A DNA stretch of 64,000 nt from Azonexus sp. (GTDB lineage Bacteria > Pseudomonadota > Gammaproteobacteria > Burkholderiales > Rhodocyclaceae), in NCBI GenBank assembly GCA_031277255.1, contig JAITMS010000017.1:177-64176 (forward strand), written 5' to 3'. Shown here piece by piece: positions 13,292-32,322 of this stretch; the stretch's first letter is position 1, and each line of letters begins with the position of its first letter. The position numbers were made by a program, and so were the translations under genes. The notes under the pieces were generated by a model. It saw nothing but the letters and a program-made list of their open reading frames with translations. It was not told the DNA's origin and ran no database searches.

Positions 13292-14365
13292 TCAGCCGCC
13301 GGTCATCGACATGAAGCGGACGACTTGCGGCGCGGTCATCTGTCCGGTGAAATCGTGGCCGAGCGGTTTGATGCCCATGCTGTCGATGATGATCTGGCGT
13401 AACTGATCGTCGTCAGCGCCGGAGCGCAGGGCGTCGAGCAGATTGACGGCGTCGTTGTGGCCGAGGCAGGGATAGAGTTCGCCCCGCGCCGTGATGCGGA
13501 CACGGTTGCAGGTGTCGCAGAAATTGTGGCTGTGCGGCGAGATGAAGCCAACCCGCGTCGCCGCGTCGGGAATCCGCCAGTAGCGGGCGGGGCCGCCGGA
13601 ATCCTCGGTCGAGGGCAGCAGCTCGAAATGTTCTGCCAGCCGCTGGCGGGTTTCTTCCGAAGAAATAAAGCGGCTGTCGCGGCTCAGAATATCGCCGAGC
13701 GGCATTTCCTCGATGAAGGAAATGTCGAGTTCGTTAGCGAGCGCAAAGCGCGTCAGATCGACAAATTCATCGTCATTGCGGCCGCGCATCATCACCACAT
13801 TGAGTTTCGTCCGGCGAAAACCGGCGGCGCGGGCGGCGGCGATGCCTTTTTTCACCTTGCCCAGATCGCCGATCCGCGTGATTTCGCGGAAACGCTCAGG
13901 GCGCAGCGTGTCGAGGCTGATGTTGAGGCGCTTGACGCCCGCCGCAAATAACGGGCGGGCGAAGCGGTCGAGTTGCGAGCCGTTGGTGGTGAGCACCAGA
14001 TTGTCAAGGCCGGGCAGGGCGGCCAGACGTTCGATCAGCCACAAGGCGTCTTTGCGCACCAGCGGTTCGCCGCCGGTGACGCGCAATTTGTTGACGCCGA
14101 GCGCGACGAAAACACGGGCGACGCGCAGGGACTCCTCAAGGCTCATCACCGCCTCGCGCGGCAGAAAAGTCATCTCCTCGGCCATGCAGTAGGTGCAGCG
14201 AAAATCGCAGCGGTCGGTGATGGAGAGGCGGACGTAAGTAATCCGCCGCCCGTATTTGTCGACCAGCGTCCCCGGCGGCAATGCGCGGCGCTGCGGCTGG
14301 ACGGCGGGCCGGAAATCGCTTCCGCCGGGGGGCGTTGATTCGGGGTGCAGGGTTTCGTTGTGCAT
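13292..14365 (-). CDS. moaA: GTP 3',8-cyclase MoaA (radical SAM)
   Basis: [14 protein letters not shown] cluster motif, C-terminal [16 protein letters not shown] second cluster, GG tail. Start chosen at MHNETL (alternative at 14407). Confidence 0.9.
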
Positions 14366-14409
14366 GTCGCGTTGCCGGACGGGGGCGCTAAAATAAGCCA
14401 TTGGCAACG

Positions 14410-14438
14410 ATTATTGACATTGCCGCTTTGACCGTCAA
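14410..14438 (-). promoter_or_regulatory. candidate sigma70 promoter for moaA (TTGACG-17 nt-AATAAT)
   Basis: Read on the minus strand as TTGACGgtcaaagcggcaatgtcAATAAT, about 45 nt upstream of the moaA ATG. Prediction by eye only. Confidence 0.35.
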
Positions 14439-14610
14439 TTAAGAAAAGTCAATGAATGGAAAATGAGGCCGAAAATCCGGGCCAATTACCGGAAAAATGG
14501 AAGCATGGCGGCATTGACGGTAGAATACCGGCTGGCGGGACAGGCCGGGGAAGGGAAGGAGCGCTGTCGGCGAAGAAAGGCTGGATACGGGGGGGGCAGA
14601 GCCAGCGCCA

Positions 14611-14640
14611 ATGAAAACGGCCTGCGCAAAGGCAGGCCGT
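14611..14640 (-). terminator. rho-independent terminator after tRNA-Asn
   Basis: Minus strand ACGGCCTGC-CTTTGC-GCAGGCCGT followed by TTTTCAT. 9-bp GC-rich stem. Confidence 0.6.
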
Positions 14641-14648
14641 CTGCAAGC

Positions 14649-14724
14649 TGGCTCCCCGACTTGGGCTCGAACCAAGGACCTACGGATTAACAGTCCGGCG
14701 CTCTACCGACTGAGCTATCGGGGA
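14649..14724 (-). tRNA. tRNA-Asn (anticodon GTT)
   Basis: Minus strand TCCCCGATAGCTCAGTCGGTAGAGCGCCGGACTGTTAATCCGTAGGTCCTTGGTTCGAGCCCAAGTCGGGGAGCCA. 7-bp acceptor stem, GTT in a CTGTTAA loop, GGTTCGAGCC T-arm, encoded CCA. Confidence 0.95.
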
Positions 14725-14778
14725 AAGAGTCGCGCATAATAGTTTCAGAAGCCGCGCGCGTCAAGCGATTCATCAATA

Positions 14779-16560
14779 TTGGACAGTGTTTCGAGTGCTA
14801 TGGACTCCAGTCTCATCTATGCCAAAACCGCCGCCGGAAACGAGGCGGTGCGTCAGGGGGCGCAGCTTGTGCAGCGCAATATGCGGGTGGTCTTGTTGCA
14901 GATTGACGGGCGGCTCTCTGTCCAGCAACTGATTGCCAAAATCGGCAGCCAGCGTCTGGTTGAAGACGCCTTGCAGGCGCTGGCCGACAAGGGCTTGATC
15001 GAGACGACCAGCGTTTTGCCGGAAACGGCGGCGGCCCGGCCAGCGGAAGCCGGAGCGGAAAATTCGATCATTTCGCAATTTTCGACTTTCGGTTCAAGTA
15101 GCATGGCCTCGGTTGGCGCTGATGACAGTGTTGGCGGTGACGACTTTACCGTCTTCGGGCGATCGACGGGGCCGTCGCTGAGCGGCGGCGCTCCGCCCGA
15201 AGCGCCGTCGCTGCCGCCGCCGCAACTGGCCGTGGTCAGAAGGGCGCGACCGAAACGCCGCTTTGCAGTTGGCCGCTGGCTCTCTGGCGGCCTTGCCATC
15301 GCCGTGGCGGCGGCGCTGGCGGCGGTCTTGCTCTATCCCTACGACCATTTCCGCCCGGCGCTCGAAACCGCCTTGGCCCGCCAGTTGGCGGCCCCGGTTC
15401 GGGTCGGCGCGGTTCATCTTGGCTGGCTGCCGCAGCCGCGTCTTCTGGTCGATGATGTCACCGTCAGCCGTGACGGTGAATGGCATATCGCCACGCTGGC
15501 GATCAGTTCACCCTGGCGGCTGCTCGGCGACGGCGGCGCTCTGCCGGAAATCGAAGCGGGCGGCGTCCGTCTGACGGCCAATCAACTGCTTGATCTGCCG
15601 TTTTTCAGTAAGCGGGGCGTGACGGCGGGCGGTTATTCGCCGCGCCGCCTGCGCATTGCCGACGCCACGGTCACCCTCGGCGATCTGACGAGCGGCCAAT
15701 GGCGGGGCGAAATACTTTTTGACGACGGCGGCAGTATGGAAAAGACCCGCTTCGACAGCGCCGACGGCAGTCTGCATCTGGAAATGACGCCAGCCGCGCA
15801 AGGCCTGGCGCTGGCGCTCGACGCCTCAGGCTGGCAACCGGAGGGTCTGCCATTCGGCTTGACGACCATGCAGGCCAGCGGTTTTTTGCAGCGCGACCGC
15901 CTGCTGCTGGAAAAACTCGACGCCAATGCCCTCGGCGGCCAGATCAGGGGCAACTGGCAACTCGACTGGAGCGCCAGCGGCATGGCGATGAGCGGCGAGG
16001 AGGACCTGACACGGCTCGACAGCCGCCAGACGATGGCGGCGCTGCTGCCCAAACTGCGACTTGAGGGCGAATTGAGCGGAGCCTTGCGGATGCGGGCCAA
16101 TGGCCGCAACTGGCAGGAGATGCTGACGCAGATCGAGGCCAGCCTTGATGCCAAAGTCACGCGCGGCCAGTTGGTCGGGATCGACCTCGGCGAGTTGGCG
16201 CGGAACAGTTTCAGCGGTGTCGTCCGTTCGGGGACGACACGTTTTGAAACCTTGCAGGCGCGTCTCGACATCACGCCGGAGCGGATCGTCGCCCAGTCAA
16301 TCCAGCTTGATGGCGGCCTGATGACGGCCAGCGGTCGCGCCACCATCGACGCGGGCGGGCAGATCGAGGGCAATGTCACGGTACAGACCCATTCCTCGAT
16401 CTTGAACACCCGCGTCCCGGCCAAAGTGAGCGGCGCCCTGAACAATATGGTGGTGACGGCAACGGTTCAGCCGGTCACCACCCGGCGGCCCTCTGAGCAA
16501 CCGGGCAATGACGGCAATCTTGAACCGGGGTCGCCGCCTCCCGATCATCTGTCGCCCTGA
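14779..16560 (+). CDS. AsmA-like envelope protein with an extra small N-terminal cytoplasmic domain
   Basis: 593 aa. About 70-aa soluble N-domain, low-complexity linker, one TM (LSGGLAIAVAAALAAVLL), then a long periplasmic region resembling AsmA family proteins. Weak family call. Confidence 0.5.
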   Translation: MDSVSSAMDSSLIYAKTAAGNEAVRQGAQLVQRNMRVVLLQIDGRLSVQQLIAKIGSQRLVEDALQALADKGLIETTSVLPETAAARPAEAGAENSIISQFSTFGSSSMASVGADDSVGGDDFTVFGRSTGPSLSGGAPPEAPSLPPPQLAVVRRARPKRRFAVGRWLSGGLAIAVAAALAAVLLYPYDHFRPALETALARQLAAPVRVGAVHLGWLPQPRLLVDDVTVSRDGEWHIATLAISSPWRLLGDGGALPEIEAGGVRLTANQLLDLPFFSKRGVTAGGYSPRRLRIADATVTLGDLTSGQWRGEILFDDGGSMEKTRFDSADGSLHLEMTPAAQGLALALDASGWQPEGLPFGLTTMQASGFLQRDRLLLEKLDANALGGQIRGNWQLDWSASGMAMSGEEDLTRLDSRQTMAALLPKLRLEGELSGALRMRANGRNWQEMLTQIEASLDAKVTRGQLVGIDLGELARNSFSGVVRSGTTRFETLQARLDITPERIVAQSIQLDGGLMTASGRATIDAGGQIEGNVTVQTHSSILNTRVPAKVSGALNNMVVTATVQPVTTRRPSEQPGNDGNLEPGSPPPDHLSP

Positions 16561-17932: not shown

Positions 17933-20010
<2,078 letters not shown>

Positions 20011-20014
<4 letters not shown>

Positions 20015-20493
20015 ATTATCGCGTCCTGATGGTGTGCATGGGCAATATCTGCCGCTCGCCCACGGCGGAAGGCGTGCTGCGCAAGTTCATCCAGCAGAAC
20101 AAGCTCGGCGACAAAGTCGAAGTCGACTCCGCCGGAACGCACGGCTACCACGTCGGCGAAGCCCCCGACAACCGCACCCAGCGGGCGGCGAAAGCCCGCG
20201 GCTACGACCTCTCGCAACTGCGGGCGCGCAAGGTGGCGCAACAGGATCTCGACTATTTCGACCTGATCCTGGCTATGGACAAAAGCAACCTCGACCACCT
20301 GAAGCGCCTGGCGACGCCGGAACAAAGCAAACGCATCAAATTGTTCATGGACTACGCCAAACACTTCGACGACGACGAAGTCCCCGACCCCTACTACGGC
20401 CTCGGCCACGGCTTCGACCTCGTCCTCGACATGGTCGAAGACGCGGCGGCAGGGCTGGTCGAGGAGATCAAGGAGAAACTGGGGCGGCGCTGA
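20011..20493 (+). CDS. low-molecular-weight protein-tyrosine phosphatase
   Basis: [17 protein letters not shown] (CX5R P-loop) and DPYY motif. ATGA overlap with the uvrB stop. Confidence 0.85.
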
Positions 20494-20527
20494 AGGGCGC
20501 GGTAAGGCTCTTTCGCCGGAGACGCGC

Positions 20528-21712
20528 ATGGCTGCCAGATGGCCGCAGGTTGTCGCATTGGGCGTGGCGCAGACGATAGCCTGGGCTTCATCCACCTATC
20601 TGCCGGCGCTGCTGGCCCGGCCACTGGCGGCTGAACTGGGCTTGCGTCCGGCTCTGGTTTTTGCCGCTTATTCCGTCGCGCTGGTCATCATGGCTGCTTG
20701 CGGGCCGCTCATTGGCCGCCATATCGACCGTCAGGGCGGGCAGGGCATCTTGTGTCTGTCGAGCGTCACGCTCGCTGGCGGTTTGATCCTGCTCGGCCTG
20801 GCTGTCGGCCCGGTCAGCCTGTTTGTTGCCTGGGCGGTGATCGGTGTCGGCATGGCGCTTGGCCTTTACGACGCGGCTTTTACCGCTCTGGTGCGCGAGC
20901 ACGGTCTGACGGCGCGCACCCCGATCACCGGCGTCACCCTGCTCGGCGGTTTCGCCAGCACCATCGGCTGGCCGCTGACGGCCTGGTTGCTGGCGCACGG
21001 CGACTGGCGGCTGACCTGCTTCGCCTGGGCTGGCATCAACCTGTTCCTGGCCTTGCCGCTGTATTACCGCTTTCTGCCTTCCAGCAAAGACCTGGCCGGG
21101 GCGGCGCCGCCGGTCACGACGGAAGGCGCGGCAGTCGAGCACTCGCGTGGCGACCGGCGCAACATCCTGGCTTTGATTGTTTTCGGCGCGGCGACAGCCT
21201 TCGTGACCTCGGCCATGGCCGCGCATCTGCCCGGCCTGCTGGCGATTGTCGGCCTGCCGTTGGTCGCCGCCATCGGCGCGGCGGCCCTGGTCGGCCCGGC
21301 GCAAGTGGCGGCGCGGCTGGGCGAATTTCTCGCCAGCCGCCGCGGGCGATTGTCGCCGCTCCTGGCCGCCCGACTGGCGACAACTCTGCATCCGCTCGGC
21401 GGCGCTTGCCTGCTGCTCGCCGCCGGACCAGCCGGAGCCACTGCCTTCGCCCTGCTGCACGGCGCTGGTAACGGCATGATAACCATCGCCTGGGGAACCT
21501 TGCCGCTGGCCCTGTTCGGCCCGCGCGGCTACGGCTTGTTACAGGGCAAACTCGCCGCCCCGCAGCGCCTGACGCAGGCGGCGGCTCCTTTCCTCTTTGC
21601 CCTGATTCTCGAATCAGCCGGGGCCAGGGTCGCCATCGGGCTTTCCGTGACCATCTCCCTGCTCGCCCTGCTGGCCTTGCTCGCCATCCGCAAGCCGGAG
21701 GGCCTGAGTTGA
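20528..21712 (+). CDS. MFS transporter (12-TM type)
   Basis: 394 aa, uniformly hydrophobic, very GC-rich. Substrate unknown. Confidence 0.65.
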   Translation: MAARWPQVVALGVAQTIAWASSTYLPALLARPLAAELGLRPALVFAAYSVALVIMAACGPLIGRHIDRQGGQGILCLSSVTLAGGLILLGLAVGPVSLFVAWAVIGVGMALGLYDAAFTALVREHGLTARTPITGVTLLGGFASTIGWPLTAWLLAHGDWRLTCFAWAGINLFLALPLYYRFLPSSKDLAGAAPPVTTEGAAVEHSRGDRRNILALIVFGAATAFVTSAMAAHLPGLLAIVGLPLVAAIGAAALVGPAQVAARLGEFLASRRGRLSPLLAARLATTLHPLGGACLLLAAGPAGATAFALLHGAGNGMITIAWGTLPLALFGPRGYGLLQGKLAAPQRLTQAAAPFLFALILESAGARVAIGLSVTISLLALLALLAIRKPEGLS

Positions 21713-21842: not shown

Positions 21843-22355
21843 TCAGCGCCTCGGTCGTACTGAATCGTGGTCGAACAGGCCGCTACGCTCATGTTCGCGC
21901 ACCAGTTCCTGTAGCGTATTGATCAGAGCGCGGGAGTTTTCTTCGCCGAACGGGCGCAGAATTTCCCGCTGGTGGGCCTGTGCCTTGCTCACCAGCCCGG
22001 CGATACGTACCTGACCTTCAGTCGTCAGGGAGACCAGGGTTTGCCGCCGGTCTCCTTCGGTGCTCTGGCGTAGGGTCAGATTTCCCACTTCGAGACGCTT
22101 TACCAGTTTCGACAAAGTCGACTGTTTGATCAGGGCGAGTCGACAGAGCGTACTGATGGTCTCGCCCGAACTACCGTACAGACAAGCCAGTACGCGCCAC
22201 TCGGCGAAGGTCAGTCCGGTGCGGGCGACTTCACGATGAAATTCGCTGGAAATCCAGTAACTCGCTTGCGACAACCAGTACGGCAGATATTGGTCAAGAA
22301 AGCGCAGCGGCGCTTCTTCATGTCCGGAGGGCTGGGTTTTCGTATCTTTTGTCAT
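21843..22355 (-). CDS. MarR family transcriptional regulator
   Basis: 170 aa. Winged HTH region FAEWRVLACLYGSSGETISTLCRLALIKQSTLSKLVKRLE...DRRQTLVSLT. Divergent from the catabolic cluster. Confidence 0.85.
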   Translation of the reverse strand: MTKDTKTQPSGHEEAPLRFLDQYLPYWLSQASYWISSEFHREVARTGLTFAEWRVLACLYGSSGETISTLCRLALIKQSTLSKLVKRLEVGNLTLRQSTEGDRRQTLVSLTTEGQVRIAGLVSKAQAHQREILRPFGEENSRALINTLQELVREHERSGLFDHDSVRPRR

Positions 22356-22408
22356 GTTTAGTCAGAGCCTGACCTACCGACTATGTGCTAGCACTCCCGG
22401 CAGGTTCT

Positions 22409-22420
22409 ATGAATTTTCAT
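22409..22420. promoter_or_regulatory. candidate MarR operator half-palindrome ATGAA-N2-TTCAT (site 1)
   Basis: ATGAATTTTCAT lies in the AT-rich divergent intergenic region. Confidence 0.35.
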
Positions 22421-22583
22421 TGTTTACGATAACCGCAACCGGCTTGGTTTGGCAATGCGGAGTATTCCGCCAATACCTGTTACCGCCAGCCAAACAGACT
22501 ATCCACACAGTAGTGGTTTTCAAGGGAAGGTCACCGGTTTGCGCTGTTGTACATAGCGAATCGCACTCTCAGTCATTTTTAAT

Positions 22584-22607
22584 ATGAAAATTCATATGAA
22601 AATTCTT
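22584..22607. promoter_or_regulatory. candidate MarR operator, tandem ATGAAAATTC(AT) sites 2-3
   Basis: ATGAAAATTCAT ATGAAAATTCTT, 12-nt tandem, about 55 nt upstream of the dapA-like start. Confidence 0.35.
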
Positions 22608-22662
22608 TGAAGCACAAACCGAGGTGTGAATACCCTTATCCGCATTGAGCGAGGAGAGACTG

Positions 22663-23631
22663 ATGAGGTATCAAAAGCACGAAGCCAAAGCATGGGCGCG
22701 CAAAAACCTGCCCGGAATCAATGGCGGCATCATTCAGCCACTGAACAAGGACTACAGCATCGACTATGGCGGCACGCGGGCGTGGATCGAGCGACAGATC
22801 GAGATGGGCGTCAATTCCATCACCTGCGATGGCGCTTGCGGCGAGTGGCTGACTTATACGGTCGAAGAACGCAAAAAAATTTATGAGGTCGCCGTCGATG
22901 CGGTGGCCGGGCGCGTTCCGTTGTTAGCCAACACCAGTCATCCCAGCATCATGGCTGCCGTCGAGCTGGCGAAGCATGCTCAGGCAGTTGGCGTCGATGC
23001 GCTGATGCATGTCACGCCCTATGCCAATTGTTCCGGCAACGAGGGCGTGTTGCGCTATTACGAATATCTGGCCGAGCGCGTTGAGATCGGTATCTGTCTC
23101 TACAACACGCGCCCGTCGGGTTATGTGTTGAGTCCTGAGTTCATCAAGGAACTGGCGGAGAAAATCCCCAACGTCTGTGGCATCAAGCAGGGTATGGGCA
23201 GCCTCGATCAGACACTGAGAGCCTACGCGCTGGCTGGAGACCTGATCGTCATCGGCGATCCTTTTGAGGATTACTGGCCGGAGCAGATGCGCTACATGCC
23301 GGATACTGCGATGCAGTTCTGCAATTTTGTCGGCGCTTTGTTTCAGATCCCGGAGAAGCCGCGCGTCACGCAGTACACCAAGCTGTTCAAGGAGGGTAAG
23401 CAGGTTGAGGCGTACAAGATATTCAACGAGCTTTCACCCTTACGTGTGCTCTTCCACGAAACCCAAGTGGCGTATCTGTCGGGCAAAGGTGTGTTTCCGC
23501 TCGCCGCGCTCAAATACTGGGCGGAAAAACTTGGGTTGCCTGGCGGTCCGGTGCGTCCACCGTTTGAAACGCTCAATGCCTATACGCGTAGCCGGATCGA
23601 CGCTCGCCTGGCTGAAGCCGGATTGATCTGA
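22663..23631 (+). CDS. DapA/HBPHA-family class I aldolase or dehydratase (not true DapA by context)
   Basis: Schiff-base lysine motif VCGIKQG and LYNTRP tyrosine motif. RBS GAGGAG at 22651. ATG 22663 preferred over the TTG at 22645. Confidence 0.7.
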   Translation: MRYQKHEAKAWARKNLPGINGGIIQPLNKDYSIDYGGTRAWIERQIEMGVNSITCDGACGEWLTYTVEERKKIYEVAVDAVAGRVPLLANTSHPSIMAAVELAKHAQAVGVDALMHVTPYANCSGNEGVLRYYEYLAERVEIGICLYNTRPSGYVLSPEFIKELAEKIPNVCGIKQGMGSLDQTLRAYALAGDLIVIGDPFEDYWPEQMRYMPDTAMQFCNFVGALFQIPEKPRVTQYTKLFKEGKQVEAYKIFNELSPLRVLFHETQVAYLSGKGVFPLAALKYWAEKLGLPGGPVRPPFETLNAYTRSRIDARLAEAGLI

Positions 23632-23665
23632 GCGTAGTCGCCGACGACAAAAACGGGAGGCAACC

Positions 23666-24862
23666 ATGATTGGATTCGAGTTATCCGAGGAACAGCGGCA
23701 GCTTCAGGAAACGGCTCGCCGCTTCGCCACGAAGGAAATCAAGCCGTTTGCCGCCGCTGTCGACCGCGTCGCTGATCCGCGGCAGGCTTATCCGAAGGAG
23801 ATCATCGGCAAGGGTTTTGAACTGGGTTTCCATTCTCTGCTGATTCCCGAAGAATACGGCGGCATGGGCGGCTGTACGCTCGATTACGCCGTCTTGCTGG
23901 AAGAACTCGCAGCGGGCGACATCGGCATGGCGAACGCTTTTCACGTCGTCATGTCGATGTCGGAAATGATCGCCCGCATGGGCGTCCGCGAGCAGTGCGA
24001 ACGCTGGCTGAGGCCGATTGCCGAAGATACCCGCGGCGAGTACCTGATTTGTTTCGGCGCTACCGAGCCATCCGGTGGTAGCGAGATATTCTGCCCGACT
24101 GCTGATCCAAAGCTTGGCGTCCGTACGCGGGCCGTACGCGATGGTGACGATTACGTTATCAACGGCAGCAAGGTTTTCAGCAGCAATGCCAGCGTCTCCA
24201 AGCTCTATGGCTTGCTGGCGCGTAGCGACAGCAGCAAGGCCAATGCCGAATCCTGTTCCGTATTTTTCTTCGCCGCCGACACACCAGGTTTTTCGATTGG
24301 CGTCATTGAAGACAAGATGGGGCATCGTGCTTCGATGAATGGCGAGCTGATTTTCGAGAACATGCGCTTGCCAAAGGAAAACATGCTTGGCCGTGAAGGC
24401 GGCGGTTTCGAGACGCTCAACGCCATTTACGACACCAATGGTGTCGGCACCGGCGCTATGGCGGTTGGCGTGGCGCGCGCCGCTTACGAGGCGGCGCTGC
24501 AATATGCCAAGGAGCGTGAAATCTGGGGACAGCCGATCGGCAAGTATCAAGCGGTGGGCCAGATGCTGGTCGATATGAAAGCCGATGTCGAAATGGCCCG
24601 CCTGATCGTGCGCCGCATTGCCTGGCAGGGGGGCAACCGCAACACCAGTGAAGGCATGTTGCCGCCGAACATGGCCAAGGTTTATCCCGCCGAAATGGCG
24701 CGCCGCGTCACGGTCAAGGCGATGCAGATTTTCGGCGGCTCAGGCTACATGAAGGATTACCCGCTGGAGAAATACGTGCGCGACGCCATGGTGCTGCCCA
24801 TTATCAGCGGCGCTAACGAAGTGCTCAAACATTTCATGGCGCAACGCCTGCTTGACGCCTGA
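23666..24862 (+). CDS. acyl-CoA dehydrogenase family protein
   Basis: 398 aa. ELSEEQRQLQETARRFA N-terminus, GATEPSGGSE middle-domain motif, C-terminal four-helix region. Confidence 0.85.
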   Translation: MIGFELSEEQRQLQETARRFATKEIKPFAAAVDRVADPRQAYPKEIIGKGFELGFHSLLIPEEYGGMGGCTLDYAVLLEELAAGDIGMANAFHVVMSMSEMIARMGVREQCERWLRPIAEDTRGEYLICFGATEPSGGSEIFCPTADPKLGVRTRAVRDGDDYVINGSKVFSSNASVSKLYGLLARSDSSKANAESCSVFFFAADTPGFSIGVIEDKMGHRASMNGELIFENMRLPKENMLGREGGGFETLNAIYDTNGVGTGAMAVGVARAAYEAALQYAKEREIWGQPIGKYQAVGQMLVDMKADVEMARLIVRRIAWQGGNRNTSEGMLPPNMAKVYPAEMARRVTVKAMQIFGGSGYMKDYPLEKYVRDAMVLPIISGANEVLKHFMAQRLLDA

Positions 24863-24865
24863 GCC

Positions 24866-26200
24866 ATGGAACCGACCATGAATCTGGGCCGTCTGTTCAA
24901 ACCCAAATCCATCGCCGTCTATGGCGCTTCGGCGACGGATAGCCGCAAGCTCGGCAATACGCTCTTGAAAAACGCGGCGAGCGGCGCTGGCGATGTGCTC
25001 GCCATCCATCCCGAAGCGGATACGATTGATGGTGTTCGCGCCATCGCCAAGCTCGATCAGCCCGTCGACCTGGCGTTGATCTCGGTGCCTGGCGGGCGCG
25101 TCGAAGCTGCCGTGACAGACGCCGCCGCCGCCGGAACCGGAGCCGCCATCGTACTCTCTTCAGGTTTTGGCGAGACCGGGCCGGAAGGGGGCGCCAAGCA
25201 GGATCGGCTGGTCGCCATTGCCCGTGCAGCGGGTATGCGCCTGGTCGGCCCCAATTGCATGGGCGTCGTCAGCCACCTGGGCGGTGATTGCTGGCTCAAT
25301 GGCTCTTATTTCTGGCGCATTCCGGGCGTCAGCGGCGGCTTGTCTTTCGTCAGCCAATCTGGCGCTTTCGGCGGCATGTTTTTTGGCCATATGCGCGCCA
25401 GCGGACTGGGGCTGTCACGTTTTCTCAGTGTCGGCAACTCCGCCGACGTCGGCATTACTGACGCCCTCGAATGGCTGGGCGACGATCCACAAACGACGGC
25501 CATCGGCATGTTTGTCGAAGGTTTCGGCGATGGGCGGCGCTTTGTCGACGTCGCCCGCCGCGTCACCGCGAAAAAACCTGTCATTGTGCTCAAGGCCGGC
25601 AAGATGGCCGCCGGGGCGAAAGCCGCCGCCAGTCATACCGGCAGCATGGTCGGCAGCCACGCCGCCGTGCGCGCCGGGTTGCGGCGCGCTGGCGTCATTG
25701 AGGCGAGCGATACCGAATCCTTTTTCGACGCTATGGATGCAGCAGCTTCCGGCTTGCGCCGGAAAATCCGCAATATCGCCATCGTCACCATTTCCGGTGG
25801 CCCTTCGGTGCTGGCCGCCGATGCCTGCGAACGCGCCGGATTGACGTTGCCATCGTTGAGTGTCGGCACCATCGAGCGTTTGCGCGGTCTGACGCCGTCA
25901 TTCGCGGCGCTGGGCAACCCGATTGATCTGACACCGCAATGTCCAGCCGATAACTTTATCCCGGCCATTGAAGCCATCTATGCTGATCCAGCCATTGAAG
26001 GCGTGGTGGCGATCAATTGCGGGCTGGATCTCAAGCCATTCGGCACTGGCGTGGCGCGGGCGGTTGCCGCCACCGGCAAGCCGACGGCGGCTTTCGTCCT
26101 TGATGCGCCCGGCGTTGATGCCGAGATGGCGAAAGCAGGCGTCATGCGCTTTGCTTCGCCGGAACGTGCCGTGAGCGTGTTGGCCGGGGGGCTTAAATGA
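24866..26200 (+). CDS. ADP-forming acyl-CoA synthetase family, CoA-binding/ligase-CoA (alpha-like) subunit
   Basis: KSIAVYGAS CoA-binding start, succinyl-CoA-synthetase-alpha-like fold, SHTGSMVG phosphohistidine-type loop. Alternative start at 24878. Confidence 0.75.
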   Translation: MEPTMNLGRLFKPKSIAVYGASATDSRKLGNTLLKNAASGAGDVLAIHPEADTIDGVRAIAKLDQPVDLALISVPGGRVEAAVTDAAAAGTGAAIVLSSGFGETGPEGGAKQDRLVAIARAAGMRLVGPNCMGVVSHLGGDCWLNGSYFWRIPGVSGGLSFVSQSGAFGGMFFGHMRASGLGLSRFLSVGNSADVGITDALEWLGDDPQTTAIGMFVEGFGDGRRFVDVARRVTAKKPVIVLKAGKMAAGAKAAASHTGSMVGSHAAVRAGLRRAGVIEASDTESFFDAMDAAASGLRRKIRNIAIVTISGGPSVLAADACERAGLTLPSLSVGTIERLRGLTPSFAALGNPIDLTPQCPADNFIPAIEAIYADPAIEGVVAINCGLDLKPFGTGVARAVAATGKPTAAFVLDAPGVDAEMAKAGVMRFASPERAVSVLAGGLK

Positions 26201-26820
26201 AAACCTTGAGCGAATGGGAAAGCAAGCGGCGCCTCGAAGGGTTGCCGTACCCGCGGGAGTTGCTGGCGAAATCGCGGGCAGAGGCCAAGGCGTTTGTTGT
26301 CACGTTGGGTAAGCCGGTTGTCGCCAAGGCTTCGGGCGTTGCGCACAAGACGGAAGGCGGACTGGTGCGCTTCAATATTGACGCGCAAATGATCGACGCG
26401 GTGTGGGAAGAACTTGCCGCCGCTGGTGATGGCGCGGTTCTGCTCGCCGAGCAGTTGCAAGCGGAACTGGAATTGATCGTCGGCGGCTACCGTGACCCCG
26501 GTTTTGGCCCCTTGGTTACCGTCGGCATCGGTGGTATTGCGGCGGAAATTTTTAGCGATGTGGCGGCCATCCTCGCGCCGCCGGAAGCAGGCGAAGTCGC
26601 CGCCGCTCTCGGTCAACTGACGGGATATAAGCTGTTACAGGGCATTCGCGGCGGCCCGCCGGTCGATGTCGCGGCCTTGGCGCAGATCGTCAATGGCGTG
26701 GCGAATCTGCTGGTCAAGGATACGGCAGTGATGGAAATCGATTGCAATCCAGTCCTGGTCTGCCAAGGCAAACCCGTTGTCGTCGATGCGTTGATCGTCC
26801 TCAGCGATGGCGATGTCTGA
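26197..26820 (+). CDS. ADP-forming acyl-CoA synthetase family, ATP-grasp (beta-like) subunit
   Basis: 207 aa. LSEWESKRRLEGLPYP...VVAKASG..HKTEGGLV ATP-grasp motif. ATGA overlap with the upstream subunit. Confidence 0.7.
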   Translation: MKTLSEWESKRRLEGLPYPRELLAKSRAEAKAFVVTLGKPVVAKASGVAHKTEGGLVRFNIDAQMIDAVWEELAAAGDGAVLLAEQLQAELELIVGGYRDPGFGPLVTVGIGGIAAEIFSDVAAILAPPEAGEVAAALGQLTGYKLLQGIRGGPPVDVAALAQIVNGVANLLVKDTAVMEIDCNPVLVCQGKPVVVDALIVLSDGDV

Positions 26821-26857
26821 GCGCCGGACGATTTTTTCAATCCGGAGAATCGAACAT

Positions 26858-27724
26858 ATGCAGGAAATCACAAGCTATCTCGCGCCCCGCAGCCTCGATG
26901 AAGCGTTGCAGGCTATGGCGACGGGCGATGTCACCGTATTCTGCGGCGGTACCGACTTGGCGCCGCAGACAGAAGCGGGCGTCCGCCGGTACAGCACCCG
27001 CCTCATGAATATCCGCCGCATTGAAAATCTGGATGGCATCGAGGAAAAGGATGGTGTCATCCGCATCGGTGCGCTCACTACAATCAGCGAAATCCGACGC
27101 CATCCTCTGATCGCCGGAGCGGCGCCGATTTTGGCCGAAGCGGCTGAGCATTTCGCCAGCGACCAGATTCGCAACGTGGCGTCGATCGGCGGCAACATCT
27201 GCAATGCCTCACCCGCTGGCGACATGATTAATCCCTTGCTGGTGCTCGATGCTGCCGTCGAATTGGCAAGCTGGGCTGATGGCGCGCAACAAAAACGCAG
27301 GGTGCCGCTGGAGCATTTCTTTACCAGTCCGCAGCGGACGGTCAAACGCGCCGATGAACTTCTGACTTCGGTCACTTTCAGGAAACCGGCGGCGGATTTC
27401 GTGGGCCGCTTTCGCAAATCCGGTCCGCGGCCCGCGCTTGAAATTTCGACGGTATCGGTCGGCGTCGGCGGCAATTTTAGCGGCGGCGTCTTGCGCAATG
27501 CGCGCGTCGCCTTCGGTTCCGTTGCGCCAACGCCGTTGCGTGCCCGCCATGTCGAGGCGGCGCTTGAAGGCTGCAAGCTCAACGCCGACGTCATCAGTGC
27601 GGCGCTGGTCGCGGCCCGATCCGACGCCAAACCGATTGACGACGTTCGCGCCAGCGCCTGGTATCGCAGCCATCTGCTCGAAGTGTTTCTGGAGGAGGTT
27701 TTGCATCATGTCCGTGGCAATTGA
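26858..27724 (+). CDS. molybdenum hydroxylase (xanthine dehydrogenase/CoxM family) FAD-binding medium subunit
   Basis: FCGGTDL and ASIGGNICNASPAGD FAD motifs. 288 aa with only 3 Cys, so no extra Fe-S loop. Confidence 0.85.
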   Translation: MQEITSYLAPRSLDEALQAMATGDVTVFCGGTDLAPQTEAGVRRYSTRLMNIRRIENLDGIEEKDGVIRIGALTTISEIRRHPLIAGAAPILAEAAEHFASDQIRNVASIGGNICNASPAGDMINPLLVLDAAVELASWADGAQQKRRVPLEHFFTSPQRTVKRADELLTSVTFRKPAADFVGRFRKSGPRPALEISTVSVGVGGNFSGGVLRNARVAFGSVAPTPLRARHVEAALEGCKLNADVISAALVAARSDAKPIDDVRASAWYRSHLLEVFLEEVLHHVRGN

Positions 27725-28193
27725 AATTAGCTTCACGCTCAATGGCCGCCTCGTCTCGGCGCGCATTCCGCCAACGATGAAAACGCTGACCATGCTGCGT
27801 GATCGATTTGGCTTGAGCGGCACCAAATACGCTTGTGGCGAAGGGGAATGCGGCGCTTGCACGATCCGGGTCGATGGCAAAACACAGAATAGTTGCCTGA
27901 TGTTCGCCGCCGATTGCGATGGCCGCGACATCGTCACCATCGAAGGTTTGAAAACGCCGACTGGCATGAATCCGGTGCAAAAAGCTTTCGTCGAACATGG
28001 CGCCGTGCAGTGCGGCTTCTGTATGCCGGGCATGATCATGCAGGCCGATTATCTGATTGCCAATAATCCCCATCTGACGCGCCAGGAAGCACAGCGTGGT
28101 CTTGAAGGCAATCTGTGCCGCTGCACCGGCTACACCAAAGTGCTTGATGCTGTCGAGTCCGCGGTCGAGCAGAAGTGCTGCGGGCAGTGCTGA
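27708..28193 (+). CDS. molybdenum hydroxylase [2Fe-2S] small subunit (CoxS family)
   Basis: CGEGECGACTIRVDG and CGFCMPG...CRCTGY cluster motifs. Start ATG 27708 overlaps the medium subunit by 17 nt. Confidence 0.9.
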   Translation: MSVAIEISFTLNGRLVSARIPPTMKTLTMLRDRFGLSGTKYACGEGECGACTIRVDGKTQNSCLMFAADCDGRDIVTIEGLKTPTGMNPVQKAFVEHGAVQCGFCMPGMIMQADYLIANNPHLTRQEAQRGLEGNLCRCTGYTKVLDAVESAVEQKCCGQC

Positions 28194-28206
28194 AGGAGAA
28201 ACGCCC

Positions 28207-30528
28207 ATGGAACAGAAAGTTACCGCGTCGACCATCGAAAAGAAAAGCCTGATCGGTCAGCGTATCAAGAAACCCGACGCGCCCGACAAAGCTACTGGCA
28301 AAACCCGCTACATCAACGATATGGTGCTGCCGCAAATGCTTCACGGGAAAGTGCTGTTTGCCGGTCGCCCCCATGCCAGGATTGTTCGCATCGACACTGC
28401 GGCGGCGGCTAGGTTGCCGGGCGTGCACGCCGTATTGACCGGCAAGGATACGGCGGGTCTGAATTTCGGTTTTGTCCGCGATAACGTTCCGCTAAAAAAT
28501 ATTGTCCGCTGCGAACATGACGAGATCGCCGCTGTCGCCGCCGAAAGTGAGGATGTTGCCCGTCAGGCGCTCAAGCTGATCGAAGTCGAATACGAGGATC
28601 TGCCCGGCGTCTTCACCCCGGAGGCAGGCGCCAAGGCTGATGCGCCGCTTATCCGCGACAATTTTCCCGGCAACAAAAGCCTGTCTTTTGAATTCAGGCA
28701 TGGTGATGTCGCCGCCGCCGAAGCCGCTTCGGATTTCATCGTCGATAGCGTTTTCCGCCCGCACCACGTTACCCATTGCTGCATGGGAACATCCTGCGCC
28801 ATTGCCGATTTCGACGACAACGGCAAACTGACGATCTGGACGCAGACCCAATATCCCTACAACTACAAGATGGATCTCGCGCCCGCTCTTGGCATTCAGC
28901 CGGGCGATATCCGCGTGATTCAGCCACCGGTCGGCGGCGCTTTTGGCTCCAAGCTCGATGTCTATCCCTACGAGCCAATTGCCGCGCTGCTGGCGAAGAA
29001 AACAGGCCGCCCGGTCAAAGTGATGTATTCGCGTGAAGAAGAATTCAAGGCGTCGCCGACCCGCCAGCCCGCCATCATCCACATGCGCACCGGTTGCAGG
29101 CGCGACGGCACGCTGACTTTCCGCACCGCTGACGTGCTCCTCGACAACGGCGCTTACACATCGTGGGGACCGACCATCCCGGTCATTATGATGCGCACCA
29201 CCTCAGGTCATTACCGCGTGCCGGTGGTCGACTTCAAAGCCCAGGCCATTTACACCAACAACCCTTACGCCGGTTCGTTTCGCGGCTACGGGAATGTCCA
29301 GACCACTTACGCAACGGCCCAGCAGATGGATATGCTGGCCGATATGGTCGATCTTGACCCGCTTGAATTTCACATCAAAAACGCGCAAAAATCTGGCGAA
29401 ATCACGCCACAAAAATCCTTTCTGCGCGAATGCGTACTCGCCGAATGTCTTGAAACGGCAGCCAAAGCTTCTGATTACAGCAAGAAACGTAAGGAATACG
29501 CGGCCTTGCGCGGAGCGCCGGGGCGTTTCAAAAAAGGTATCGGGCTGGCTTCGTCGATCCACAACGCGGGCGGCGCCAAAATTCACAAATCGGACGGCAT
29601 CGGCACCATCCTCAAAGTCGATGACTACGCCCGTGTCACGGTCATCACTGGCGCTTCAGAAATCGGCCAAGGCATCGACGCGGTGATTACCCTCATCGTT
29701 GCCGAAGAACTCGGCGTGCCGCTTGAACACGTTACCCTCGTCAACAATGATTCTGACATCGCGCCTTGGGATGTCGGCGTCCATGCCTCACGAACCACAT
29801 TTATCGCTGGCAACGGCACGCGGCGGGCGGCGCGAAAGGCGAAGGCACAGATTCTCCAGGCCGCCGAAAAATTTTTCGGCGAACCGGCTGACACGCTGGA
29901 ACTGCGTGGCGGTTCTGTTGTGCGCGAGCAGTGCGGCACGCCGCTCATCAAACTCGACCGCCTGCTGCGCCAAATGCATTTTCAGGACGAGCCGGAACTG
30001 GTGATGGTGACCGACTACTACGAGCCGAAAAGCGAGCCGGAAGGCGCCGCCCACCTGTCCGATCATTCAGCCGCCTATTCCCATGCCGTACATATTGCCG
30101 AAATCACCGTCGATACGCTGACCGGTGAAATCAGGGTCGATCGCGTCACGGTCGCACAGGATGTCGGTCGAGTCATCAATCGTCTGGGCCTCGAAGGGCA
30201 GGTTGAGGGCGGCATCGCTATCGGCCTGGGTTACGCCTTGAGTGAAAACATGCAGCTCGAACGCGGCATCCTCAAAAACTCCTGTTTCCGCGACTACAAG
30301 CTGATAACCGCGCCGGAAATGCCGCCACTTGAGATGCACTTCATCGAGAGCGACTGCGCCGAAGGTCCCTACGGCGCCAAGGGGGTCTCGGAGCTGCCGA
30401 CCATCGTCATTGCGCCAGCCATCGCCAATGCGCTGTACAACGCCACCGGCGTGCGCATCTTCGATCCGCCACTGGCGCCGGAAAAAGTGGCGCGGGCCAT
30501 TGCCGAAATGCGGCAACGCAAACTGTAG
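28207..30528 (+). CDS. molybdenum hydroxylase molybdopterin-binding large subunit (CoxL/XdhB family)
   Basis: 773 aa. GKTRYINDM N-terminus, QPPVGGAFGSK Moco motif, C-terminal GAKGVSELP with the catalytic Glu. Confidence 0.9.
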   Translation: MEQKVTASTIEKKSLIGQRIKKPDAPDKATGKTRYINDMVLPQMLHGKVLFAGRPHARIVRIDTAAAARLPGVHAVLTGKDTAGLNFGFVRDNVPLKNIVRCEHDEIAAVAAESEDVARQALKLIEVEYEDLPGVFTPEAGAKADAPLIRDNFPGNKSLSFEFRHGDVAAAEAASDFIVDSVFRPHHVTHCCMGTSCAIADFDDNGKLTIWTQTQYPYNYKMDLAPALGIQPGDIRVIQPPVGGAFGSKLDVYPYEPIAALLAKKTGRPVKVMYSREEEFKASPTRQPAIIHMRTGCRRDGTLTFRTADVLLDNGAYTSWGPTIPVIMMRTTSGHYRVPVVDFKAQAIYTNNPYAGSFRGYGNVQTTYATAQQMDMLADMVDLDPLEFHIKNAQKSGEITPQKSFLRECVLAECLETAAKASDYSKKRKEYAALRGAPGRFKKGIGLASSIHNAGGAKIHKSDGIGTILKVDDYARVTVITGASEIGQGIDAVITLIVAEELGVPLEHVTLVNNDSDIAPWDVGVHASRTTFIAGNGTRRAARKAKAQILQAAEKFFGEPADTLELRGGSVVREQCGTPLIKLDRLLRQMHFQDEPELVMVTDYYEPKSEPEGAAHLSDHSAAYSHAVHIAEITVDTLTGEIRVDRVTVAQDVGRVINRLGLEGQVEGGIAIGLGYALSENMQLERGILKNSCFRDYKLITAPEMPPLEMHFIESDCAEGPYGAKGVSELPTIVIAPAIANALYNATGVRIFDPPLAPEKVARAIAEMRQRKL

Positions 30529-30553
30529 GGCGTTGCGATCAGGAGGCTCCGCA

Positions 30554-32059
30554 ATGAATATTGCCGACTGGATTGAAAAATGGGCGCGCGCCACGCCAAA
30601 CAAGGCAGCGCTACGTTTTGCCGACGACCAACTGAGCTACGCTCGCTTCAACGACGAAATCAAGACCCACGCCCGGATGTTACGTAACAAACTCGGCATC
30701 GCGCCGGGTGACCGCGTTGCTCATCTGGGGCAGAACCATCCGCGGATGCTGATAACCCTGTTCGCCTGCGCCCGCTTGGGCGCGATTTTCGTACCGCTCA
30801 ACTGGCGGCTGGCGCCACGGGAACATCTGCACATGTTGCGCCATTGCGCTGCCGCCGTGCTGGTCGTAGACGAACCTTACGTCAGCCAGTGCGAGCGATT
30901 CCGCGCCGAAACGCCCGATTGCCTGTTCGTCGCCATGAATGACAACGACCCTGTCGGATGGCCGAAACTCGATGATCTGCTACGCGATGCGGTGGGCGAA
31001 GACCATCACCCCGGTAGCGGCTTCGACGATCCACTACTGCTCATTTATACCTCTGGCACCACGGGCGCGCCCAAGGGCGCTGTGCTGAAGCAGGCCGCTG
31101 TTCAGGCCAATGCACTCAACAGCGTGTTGCTGCACGACATGACGAGCCAGGACGTGATTCTTACCATCTTGCCGCTCTTCCACGTCGGCGGCCTCAATGT
31201 CCAGACCACGGCGGCTTTGTATCGCGGCGCCACGGTCATCCTGCACCGCGCCTTTGCGCCCCGGCAGACGCTCGATTGCCTGCTCGGCGAAAAACCAACG
31301 CTGACCATCATCCTGCCTGCTCACATGGAGCCGCTGCAAAGCCTGCCCGACTGGGCAACGGCAAAAATCCCGCTACGCGCGGTATTGACCGGTTCCAGCG
31401 CCATTCCTGATGAGATGACGCGTCATTGGCACGGACGCGGTATTCCGTTGCTCAATATGTACGGTTCCAGCGAAACCGCGCCGATCGCCATTCATCAGTC
31501 GGTAACCAACGCTTTCGCCACCGTCGGCACAGTCGGTTTTCCCGCCATGCATTGCGCCATTCGCATCGTCGACGAGGCCGACCAGGATTGCAGAATTGAC
31601 GAACCGGGCGAGATTCTCGTGCGTGGCCCCAACGTTATGTCGTATTACTGGAACGACGAAGAAGCCACCCGCAACGCCTTCATCAACGGCTGGTTCCGCA
31701 CTGGTGACATTGGTACCGTCGATACTGGTGGTTGTTATCGCATCCTCGATCGTAAAAAGGACGTGATTATTTCCGGTGGCGAGAACATCTATCCGGCGGA
31801 AATCGAAAATATCCTGCTCTCGCACCCCAGCATCCTCGAAGCTGTCGTCGTCAGACGCCGGGATATGCAGTGGGGCGAAATACCGGTTGCGGTCATCGTC
31901 GCCAGACCTGCCAGCCGACTCGACAAAAAGACCGTGCTCGACTGGTTCAACGGCAAGATCGGACGCTATAAACATCCGAAAGACGTGGTGTTCGTCGACG
32001 CGCTGCCGCGTAACGCCATGGGCAAAGTGGTCAAACACGTATTACGCGACACGGTGTAA
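30554..32059 (+). CDS. AMP-forming acyl-CoA synthetase (ANL superfamily)
   Basis: LIYTSGTTGAPKGAVL AMP motif, YGSSET, GWFRTGD, PRNAMGKV. RBS AGGAGG at 30541. Confidence 0.9.
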   Translation: MNIADWIEKWARATPNKAALRFADDQLSYARFNDEIKTHARMLRNKLGIAPGDRVAHLGQNHPRMLITLFACARLGAIFVPLNWRLAPREHLHMLRHCAAAVLVVDEPYVSQCERFRAETPDCLFVAMNDNDPVGWPKLDDLLRDAVGEDHHPGSGFDDPLLLIYTSGTTGAPKGAVLKQAAVQANALNSVLLHDMTSQDVILTILPLFHVGGLNVQTTAALYRGATVILHRAFAPRQTLDCLLGEKPTLTIILPAHMEPLQSLPDWATAKIPLRAVLTGSSAIPDEMTRHWHGRGIPLLNMYGSSETAPIAIHQSVTNAFATVGTVGFPAMHCAIRIVDEADQDCRIDEPGEILVRGPNVMSYYWNDEEATRNAFINGWFRTGDIGTVDTGGCYRILDRKKDVIISGGENIYPAEIENILLSHPSILEAVVVRRRDMQWGEIPVAVIVARPASRLDKKTVLDWFNGKIGRYKHPKDVVFVDALPRNAMGKVVKHVLRDTV

Positions 32060-32070
32060 CGGGAGGGGCG

Positions 32071-32322
32071 ATGAAAATCCGCTATGGCGGCTGGCTGAAA
32101 AATCTGATCGGCGGCGACGCTGAAGATGTCGTCCTGCCCGCTGGCGTCACTACGGTCGGCGCTCTTCTCGACTGGCTGTCAAGCCGTGGCGAACGCTATG
32201 AAAAAGCCTTCGAGCACAGCAGCATCTTCATTGTTTCCGTCAACTGGAGATATGCCAGACAACAAGATCCCGTCACCAATCAGGACGAAGTTCTGCTGAT
32301 GCCGCCCATTGCCGGAGGATAA
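32071..32322 (+). CDS. MoaD/ThiS-family small sulfur-carrier-like protein
   Basis: 83 aa, beta-grasp size, ends in ...LLMPPIAGG (C-terminal Gly-Gly). Confidence 0.7.
   Translation: MKIRYGGWLKNLIGGDAEDVVLPAGVTTVGALLDWLSSRGERYEKAFEHSSIFIVSVNWRYARQQDPVTNQDEVLLMPPIAGG

Follow-up and report, generated by a model that had tools for sequence, protein, structure and literature searches.

A molybdenum hydroxylase operon of Azonexus with a proposed role in oxygen-independent, CoA-dependent catabolism of indoleacetate or a close analogue

A 64,000-nucleotide stretch of Azonexus sp. DNA (GenBank assembly GCA_031277255.1, contig JAITMS010000017.1, positions 177 to 64,176), hereafter the window, carries nine co-directional genes and a divergent MarR gene. 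Together they encode a three-subunit molybdenum hydroxylase, two kinds of coenzyme A (CoA) ligase and distant relatives of DapA and acyl-CoA dehydrogenase. We favour, with modest confidence, the reading that these genes form a self-contained operon, acquired horizontally, by which indole-3-acetate or a very similar indolic or aryl-acetic compound would be broken down in a CoA-dependent and oxygen-independent manner. The molybdenum enzyme is an orthologue of one encoded in the iaa gene cluster, the locus of anaerobic indoleacetate degradation in Aromatoleum aromaticum EbN1 and A. evansii (Schuhle 2021, PMC8360864). A literature search returned descriptions of the iaa, iac and iad pathways and none of the architecture seen in the window. 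Our preferred reading of that architecture is a new form of auxin catabolism that depends on CoA but not on oxygen. The iaa cluster is reportedly also to be credited to Ebenau-Jehle in 2012 and to Schuhle in 2016.

The molybdenum enzyme, its ligase and its regulator

Pfam and NCBIfam profiles placed all nine genes and the divergent MarR gene, in the order that had been described from the letters of the DNA alone (the original prediction), across positions 21843-32322. Gene starts were judged by profile alignment and ribosome-binding sites, and the junctions between genes range from -17 (an overlap) to +37 nt. Other features of that prediction also held: the medium-small-large order of the molybdenum subunits, the ATGA overlap of the two synthetase genes (26197-26820 and 24866-26200), the combination of two mechanistically different CoA ligases (an AMP-forming ligase and AcdAB), and a MarR gene with operator-like repeats, which we locate at 22409, 22584 and 22596. 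The features are as follows.

21843-22355, minus strand: MarR-family repressor, IadR-like, a candidate auxin sensor (Pfam MarR/MarR_2)
22409-22420, 22584-22595 and 22596-22607: operator-like palindromes ATGAA-N2-TTCAT in the intergenic region between marR and the dapA-like gene
22663-23631, plus strand: dihydrodipicolinate synthase (DHDPS)-fold protein, the DapA-like protein of the text (PF00701; start ATG after GAGGAGAG)
23666-24862, plus strand: acyl-CoA dehydrogenase (ACAD)-fold flavoprotein, the ACAD-like protein of the text (Pfam ACAD N, M and C domains)
24866-26200, plus strand: AcdA, alpha subunit of an ADP(NDP)-forming acyl-CoA synthetase (CoA_binding_2 and Succ_CoA_lig domains)
26197-26820, plus strand: AcdB, beta subunit of the same synthetase, ATP-grasp (PF13549; ATGA overlap with the alpha gene)
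26858-27724 (alternative start 26807), plus strand: FAD (medium) subunit of the molybdenum hydroxylase (FAD_binding_5 and CO_deh_flav_C)
27708-28193, plus strand: 2x[2Fe-2S] (small) subunit of the molybdenum hydroxylase (Fer2 and Fer2_2)
28207-30528, plus strand: molybdopterin (large) subunit of the molybdenum hydroxylase, orthologue of the iaa-cluster enzyme
30554-32059, plus strand: AMP-forming, putative aryl-acid CoA ligase of the iaa-ligase family (AMP-binding domains)
32071-32322, plus strand: MoaD/ThiS-like protein of 83 aa with a C-terminal Gly-Gly (PF02597; TIGR01682 at 55 bits, cut-off 66)

Hundreds of proteins resemble the large subunit at 85-92% identity, after which the values fall to 57% or less. 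The first of their neighbourhoods to be opened, in Lautropia (87% identity), holds genes for hydantoinase A/B, an ACAD, a split B12 mutase, a ThiS-like protein, a family III CoA transferase and an ABC importer. This is the gene content of the published iaa cluster (PMC8360864; PMC9613470), and the Lautropia ACAD shows the GGG motif that defines IaaF. A set of 80 species-representative loci was retrieved by means of the large subunit, and the proteins of the two clusters were used to score each locus. Two architectures were found: type A, with the layout of iaa (for example in Aromatoleum buckelii U120, Ramlibacter lithotrophicus and Paramagnetospirillum caucaseum), and type B, with the layout of the window. 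Identity between the window's large subunit and its counterparts in canonical iaa clusters, those of the three named species among them, is 84-89%, and the clusters concerned carry hydantoinase A/B, an IaaF-type ACAD (GGG), the split B12 mutase and a family III CoA transferase. The small and FAD subunits are 70-79% and 62-73% identical to the iaa-cluster subunits, whose letter names we assign by position.

The type-B large subunits form no clade in a maximum-likelihood tree but are interleaved with the iaa enzymes, and the A. buckelii enzyme is sister to one of them. Only one alignment column of 773, residue 3, separates the two contexts. Given the identity, the interleaved tree and this single column, we regard the window's enzyme as the orthologue of the iaa molybdenum enzyme, with no sign of an altered pocket. 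This orthology makes assignable a substrate that the original prediction had held not to be: with moderate confidence, sequence kinship points to indoleacetate or a very close analogue, one item in the list of compounds that the prediction had put forward for growth tests. The prediction had also proposed placing the large subunit among characterised enzymes of its family. The subunit does fall in a tight group with the iaa enzyme. Of the nine genes, however, the iaa pathway accounts only for those of the molybdenum subunits, the AMP-forming ligase and the MoaD-like protein, and it leaves the DapA-like, ACAD-like and ADP-forming synthetase genes unexplained.

For the large subunit, 4-hydroxybenzoyl-CoA reductase alpha supplies both the nearest solved structure (371 bits) and the highest-scoring NCBIfam model, and one could envision a system for hydroxybenzoates or furoate that resembles this reductase or furoyl-CoA dehydrogenase. 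We give this idea next to no weight. The large subunit reaches 566 bits with TIGR03194, for which the cut-off is 995. The FAD subunit (288 aa) has 3 Cys and no [4Fe-4S] insertion, as had been noticed from the sequence, and reaches 85 bits with TIGR03195, for which the cut-off is 405. The true nearest relatives of the large subunit (84-89%) are all iaa-cluster or type-B enzymes, and no hydratase of the furoyl pathway is encoded. The reductase and furoyl-CoA dehydrogenase had been named as the known molybdenum hydroxylases of CoA-dependent pathways; that list was incomplete, as it missed the anaerobic iaa enzyme to which the window's is orthologous.

In the window, the molybdenum genes stand between AcdB and the AMP-forming ligase, and not between the B12 mutase and the CoA transferase as they do in iaa operons. 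The MoaD-like gene belongs to the molybdenum enzyme module, because in canonical iaa clusters of this molybdenum family a homologue, 42-55% identical to the window copy, also lies directly 3' of the large-subunit gene. A second molybdenum family, 52-57% identical to the window's, was found only inside iaa clusters (9/9 loci examined). It is embedded in such clusters at L091/L092 (genome G404, contig C2) and at L093-L100. No MoaD-like gene was detected after the large subunit in L091-L100, and in three of these clusters (L093, L098 and L100) hydantoinase genes are absent from the interval that separates the ligase gene from that of IaaF.

The AMP-forming ligase finds its best match in the A. 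buckelii genome in the iaa-cluster ligase (49% identity, with the runner-up at 35% or less), and the match is mutual. Type-B ligases make up one clade (support 98), whose sister group is formed by the ligases of Emcibacter-type alphaproteobacterial iaa clusters, the only ligases in those clusters.

The solved structures closest to the window's MarR are those of Variovorax MarR_73/IadR, 7KFO and 7KKI (97 bits over 139 residues, about 40% identity); the next relatives score 73 and then 43 bits. IadR binds indoleacetate at 0.41 uM, and its seven contact residues have been published (PMC9613470). Five of the seven are kept in the window (Tyr15, Ser28, His32, Trp45 and Arg46), including all three that contact the carboxylate; the other two, Ala18 and Val65, have become Tyr and Leu. 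No close homologue of this MarR was found in the iaa-type genomes searched. The palindrome ATGAA-N2-TTCAT lies 75-90 nt upstream of the DapA-like gene in 9/9 betaproteobacterial type-B loci checked, and all 14 matches to it in 1.31 Mb of fetched loci fall in those promoter regions. By this phylogenetic footprint the palindromes are operator-like.

Two architectures and the genes that set them apart

Conservation of the nine-gene neighbourhood had been proposed as a check, and the set recurs in 14 of the 80 loci. The hosts are Rhodocyclaceae, Sulfuritalea, Azonexus, Steroidobacteraceae and uncultured Gammaproteobacteria, and type B also occurs on further metagenome contigs. The nine genes thus travel together across Beta- and Gammaproteobacteria, and given this recurrence the arrangement is far beyond chance. 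At one gammaproteobacterial type-B locus, L056, the operon has a tyrosine integrase and a DDE transposase as its immediate neighbours (14126-15133 and 19342-20574), which fits mobility of the whole block.

Orthologues of the iaa hydantoinase, B12 mutase, IaaF and IaaL were found neither in the cluster nor elsewhere in the genome, where the best matches reach 48%/37%, 40%, 41% and 31%; the hydantoinase, mutase and IaaL proteins of betaproteobacterial iaa clusters share 66-97% identity, and those of more distant iaa clusters 62-82%. The three iaa genomes that we searched hold no orthologue of the DapA-like protein or of AcdA. Because each set lacks the orthologues of the other in the genomes searched, we treat types A and B as alternative layouts.

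One could instead suppose that the window carries a remnant of an ordinary iaa pathway that has been split, with hydantoinase-like and mutase genes elsewhere in the genome and with the DapA-like, ACAD-like and AcdAB genes as passengers. Contig C60 of the same genome does encode hydantoinase A/B homologues (48% and 37%), and B12 mutase homologues at 40% are present. These identities are far below the values of 70-95% at which true iaa orthologues resemble one another, however, and the genes sit in a different cluster. Moreover, no IaaF or IaaL orthologue was found in the genome, the nine genes co-travel in 14 loci and adjoin an integrase and a transposase in one of them, and it is upstream of the operon's first gene, the DapA-like one, that the conserved operator is found. 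We consider a split iaa pathway very improbable.

The C60 cluster (L088:3984-15342, minus strand) itself contains the hydantoinase A/B-like genes, an OYE/FadH-type Fe-S flavoreductase, a fusion of 3-hydroxyacyl-CoA dehydrogenase and enoyl-CoA hydratase, an ACAD of 623 aa and an AMP ligase. Next comes a pair made up of a BNR-propeller and an MMPL/RND gene, which resembles the envelope module found at 39-45 kb in the window. The reductase and ligase of the C60 cluster resemble genes that lie just upstream of MarR in two type-B loci (L086 and L075).

Genes of the benzoyl-CoA reductase type are absent from 7 of 15 type-B genomes, among them that of the window (96.9% complete), and are present in 5/5 iaa genomes. 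Because nearly half of these type-B genomes (7/15) do without them, the product in which type B ends does not have to be an aryl-CoA bound for reductive dearomatisation. When 4 of the first 6 type-B genomes searched (the window's among them) lacked PF06050 and 5/5 iaa genomes had it, type B and the absence of benzoyl-CoA reductase seemed strictly linked; this idea was dropped when nine more type-B genomes brought the count to 7/15. We use the counts solely to argue that type B can do without benzoyl-CoA reductase.

Other type-B clusters end with an ABC importer of five genes, whose binding protein resembles binders of aromatic acids (4EVQ). In a Sterolibacterium metagenome-assembled genome (MAG; L081), this importer (70-86% identity) comes after a canonical iaa cluster. 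A pair of octopine-dehydrogenase-like and 3-hydroxyacyl-CoA dehydrogenase genes accompanies both cluster types. An NnrS-family gene, for a haem-copper membrane protein linked to NO stress, adjoins both type-B and iaa clusters (L007, L008, L094, L099 and L100). In the window, a major facilitator superfamily (MFS) gene at 20528-21712 was considered as an importer and rejected: it matches an ArsK-type efflux model best, though below the cut-off, and none of the related loci contains it.

The three proteins that mark type B depart from their nearest characterised families. Aligned with the housekeeping DapA of the same genome, the DapA-like protein keeps the Schiff-base lysine that had been expected of it, Lys161 (GIKQG), together with Tyr133 (LYNT), and has lost Thr44 and Thr45 (GACGE for GTTGE), Tyr107 (PYAN for PYYN) and Arg138 (where the aligned residue is not Arg). 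With TIGR00674 it reaches 119 bits, against a cut-off of 206. Its family is tight, with members at 70% identity or more and then a gap down to 37% or less. An AlphaFold model of the protein (pLDDT 92.6) matches only generic DHDPS folds (TM about 0.82), and ESM Atlas and Foldseek searches likewise returned only generic matches of the DHDPS family.

The ACAD-like protein aligns end to end, at about 250 bits, with butyryl-CoA dehydrogenase (Bcd) and medium-chain acyl-CoA dehydrogenase (MCAD), and has an 8-residue insertion. The catalytic Glu is missing (YEG has become ISG), and the alternative position for the base in helix G, Thr255 of MCAD, is Asn. Both ISG and Asn are conserved in all relatives of the DapA-like/ACAD-like pair. 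At 30-32% identity to IaaF the protein is not an IaaF orthologue; the IaaF of the reference iaa cluster shows GGG, as published.

AcdA bears the histidine motif SHTGS and AcdB the motif HKTEGG, so that AcdAB has both histidine motifs of NDP-forming synthetases. AcdA reaches 357 bits with the acetate-specific model TIGR02717 (cut-off 567), and its best solved relatives are 2CSU and 4XYL. Relatives of AcdAB at 56-70% identity adjoin other hydroxylases of the xanthine dehydrogenase (XDH) family, in clusters that also encode Rieske, LigB and hydrolase proteins and a regulator like PaaX but lack an AMP ligase. Because distant relatives, too, adjoin XDH-family hydroxylases, the link between the AcdAB lineage and molybdenum hydroxylases is recurrent. 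It is plausible, as the original prediction had suggested, that in the window one ligase activates the substrate and the other recovers ATP.

The DapA-like/ACAD-like pair is not confined to type B. Pairs with 70-79% identity and the same motifs occur without the ligase, AcdAB or a window-type molybdenum enzyme in three other settings: alongside an OxoO/CarAa-type Rieske oxygenase with a GST and hydrolases; next to a Rieske alpha subunit, ferredoxin-like proteins, a protein of the short-chain dehydrogenase/reductase family and PrpD-like genes, near a gene for a cytokinin-dehydrogenase-like protein; and beside a two-subunit IorAB-type molybdenum hydroxylase and an amidase. AcdAB co-varies with the genes for CoA-dependent hydroxylation and not with the pair. 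From these contexts we read the pair as a putative lower module that takes over after ring hydroxylation. The iad locus was considered as the source of this module and rejected, as the published iad gene list contains no DHDPS-like or ACAD-like gene. The cytokinin-dehydrogenase-like gene (L105:20528-20969; FAD_binding_4 and Cytokin-bind) is separated by about 8 kb from a pair that has a Rieske oxygenase beside it, and that locus may serve the catabolism of more than one plant hormone.

The flanks of the window's operon are unrelated to it. Upstream lie uvrB, a low-molecular-weight phosphatase gene and the ArsK-like MFS gene, and downstream an AraC gene followed by an aldehyde/amine dehydrogenase operon. 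None of the ten same-genus genomes that we compared carries the operon. DNA similarity to them ends with the phosphatase gene, near 20500, and the segment 20500-36800 (the MFS gene, MarR, the operon, and the AraC gene with the amine-dehydrogenase operon) is missing from all ten; the cluster therefore lies within accessory DNA of at least 16 kb. GC content falls to 0.55 at 22-24 kb of the window. Among public runs searched for the stretch, only one termite-gut metagenome, probably the source of the DNA, contained it, and no RNA run did. Scans for promoters and terminators gave counts equal to the shuffled expectation and were uninformative on the boundaries of the operon.

A candidate route and its rivals

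Under the reading that we favour, an aromatic acid would release the IadR-like MarR from its ATGAA-N2-TTCAT operators, and the AMP-forming ligase would convert the acid to its aryl-acetyl-CoA thioester. The molybdenum hydroxylase, with its private MoaD-like protein, would then hydroxylate C2 of the pyrrole ring with water, as has been proposed for iaa, to give 2-oxindole-3-acetyl-CoA (or 2-oxindole-3-acetate). Orthology supports these first steps; the later ones are drawn from the enzyme folds. ATP-dependent opening of the lactam, the B12-dependent rearrangement and IaaF would not be used. Instead, AcdAB could remove CoA with recovery of ATP, or it could activate a second carboxyl group. The ACAD-fold flavoenzyme without Glu might oxidise the acidic C3/C-alpha position of the oxindole acid, where the usual ACAD base would be dispensable because the C3-H of oxindole is acidic. 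Addition of water could then yield a compound like dioxindole-3-acetate (DOAA), as in the known water-dependent step from 2-oxindole-3-acetate to DOAA; in the aerobic iac pathway, DOAA takes its C3 oxygen from water (PMC7225977). Finally, the Lys-dependent DHDPS-fold protein may act as a lyase that releases the side chain by cleavage of a C-C or C-N bond. One type-B cluster contains genes for electron-transfer flavoprotein, which fit a flavoprotein dehydrogenase.

A bolder proposal, which we advance tentatively, is that type B represents an undescribed auxin route independent of oxygen, B12 and benzoyl-CoA reductase. Its lower half would be run by a unit of two enzymes, the ACAD-fold protein without Glu and the DHDPS-fold Lys enzyme without Thr, which bacteria would plug behind at least four different ring-hydroxylating systems. 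The archaeal-type ADP-forming synthetase would serve as the step that takes CoA off and recovers ATP after CoA-dependent hydroxylation by the molybdenum enzyme.

Several observations weigh against an indoleacetate route of this kind. The roles of AcdAB and of the ACAD-like and DapA-like proteins, and their order, are ones that we infer, and the cluster encodes no hydratase or amidase. Two type-B operons include a bona fide malate synthase A gene (748 bits, cut-off 595) between the MoaD-like and importer genes (L086:14193-15791 and L046:14191-15786), which hints at glyoxylate as a product, one that the proposed route does not obviously give. The context of the AcdAB relatives favours an activating role there over ATP recovery, and AcdAB may act in that direction, because these relatives adjoin molybdenum hydroxylases with no second ligase. 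The substrate assignment is itself based on orthology and context, and we know of no purification and assay of even the iaa molybdenum enzyme. The remaining points bear on substrate identity. One MAG, G404, carries a type-B cluster and also a complete iaa cluster with its own molybdenum enzyme, ligase and importer, a coexistence that may argue for different substrates or for condition-specific routes. Type-B ligases share overall no more than 45-57% identity with iaa ligases, between the type-B binding protein and its usual iaa counterpart the figure is only 27-29%, and in the pocket of the window's MarR Ala18 of IadR is replaced by Tyr.

These points raise the alternative that the same architecture serves another aromatic or N-heteroaromatic acid, for which a broad-specificity hydroxylase of the iaa type has been recruited. 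Candidate substrates include 2-oxindole-3-acetate, indole-3-propionate, indole-3-carboxylate, and quinoline- or other heteroaryl-carboxylates. We think this unlikely but well worth weighing. The two full sets of ligase, molybdenum enzyme and importer in G404, the distinct clade of type-B ligases and the Ala18-to-Tyr change would all be accommodated by it, as would the occurrence of the DapA-like/ACAD-like pair and AcdAB relatives beside OxoO/CarAa-type Rieske oxygenases or other molybdenum hydroxylases typical of N-heterocycle pathways. On the other side, the large subunit is interleaved with iaa enzymes and, with one differing column in 773, has no residues specific to its context; the sister group of the type-B ligases is made up of ligases that are each the only one in a canonical iaa cluster; the type-B importer is found with a canonical iaa cluster too; and the MarR retains all three carboxylate contacts of its indoleacetate-binding relative.

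A downstream isatin route was considered for contig C42 of the window's own genome, where a cyclase-family gene lies in a neighbourhood of F420-biosynthesis, luciferase-like and FAA-hydrolase genes, and was rejected, since nothing ties this neighbourhood to the operon. The region (L101:2278-19315) of this betaproteobacterial MAG contains genes of the F420-biosynthesis type, including CofD and a fused CofG/CofH-like radical-SAM protein (801 aa), and beside them genes for a luciferase-like monooxygenase, an FAA hydrolase, the cyclase-family protein and an HMGL-like protein. Two XDH-family enzymes on the same contig are 39% and 31% identical to the window's large subunit.

Comparison with known auxin and CoA-dependent pathways

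Bacterial degradation of auxin shapes the development of plant roots, and indoleacetate is also a tryptophan metabolite of the gut. To our knowledge, only three routes of auxin degradation have been described (iac, iad and iaa), and one of them is independent of oxygen. The cluster reported here points to a second such route, one that would need neither B12 nor benzoyl-CoA reductase. Its hosts are Rhodocyclaceae, Sterolibacteriaceae, Steroidobacteraceae and uncultured Gammaproteobacteria from wastewater, groundwater, lakes and, in the present case, the termite gut. The enzymology is of interest in its own right: an ACAD fold without its catalytic base, a DHDPS fold without its proton relay, and bacterial ADP-forming synthetases that repeatedly partner molybdenum hydroxylases. 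Current annotations of these proteins are generic ("xanthine dehydrogenase family", "dihydrodipicolinate synthase family", "CoA-binding protein").

The iaa cluster is the closest known system. Like it, the window encodes a three-subunit XDH-family molybdenum enzyme, which is orthologous, with a MoaD-like companion, and an AMP-forming ligase that is probably of the same family; both follow a CoA-thioester logic without an oxygenase and have a regulator of the MarR class, and relatives of the window's cluster have the same kind of ABC importer. Unlike iaa, the window lacks the ring opener of the hydantoinase type, the B12 mutase (IaaGH), the decarboxylating IaaF and the CoA transferase IaaL, and has instead the DHDPS-fold protein, the ACAD-fold protein without Glu and the split ADP-forming acyl-CoA synthetase. 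Type-B hosts, in contrast to those of iaa, often lack benzoyl-CoA reductase genes. The window's regulator is closer to IadR of the aerobic pathway than to any regulator found in iaa genomes.

With the aerobic iad and iac systems of Variovorax and Pseudomonas putida 1290 (PMC9613470, PMC7225977), the window shares a MarR that resembles IadR and in which the carboxylate contacts are conserved. It probably also shares 2-oxindole-3-acetate as an early intermediate, followed by water-derived oxygenation at C3. It differs from them in having no Rieske dioxygenase, IacA monooxygenase, IOR or cyclase-type isatin hydrolase; the molybdenum enzyme would hydroxylate the ring with water.

Two further systems resemble single parts of the operon. 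HcrCAB, the 4-hydroxybenzoyl-CoA reductase (PDB 1RM6), provides the closest solved structure for the large subunit and is likewise an XDH-family enzyme that acts on a CoA thioester. The window's enzyme differs in that it falls below the family cut-off, lacks the [4Fe-4S] loop, has its genes in medium-small-large order and is predicted to hydroxylate rather than to dehydroxylate. The archaeal-type NDP-forming acyl-CoA synthetases (4XYL, 2CSU) share with AcdAB the split into alpha and beta subunits and both histidine motifs, whereas AcdAB scores below the cut-off for acetate-CoA ligase and represents a bacterial lineage that recurs beside hydroxylases of the XDH family.

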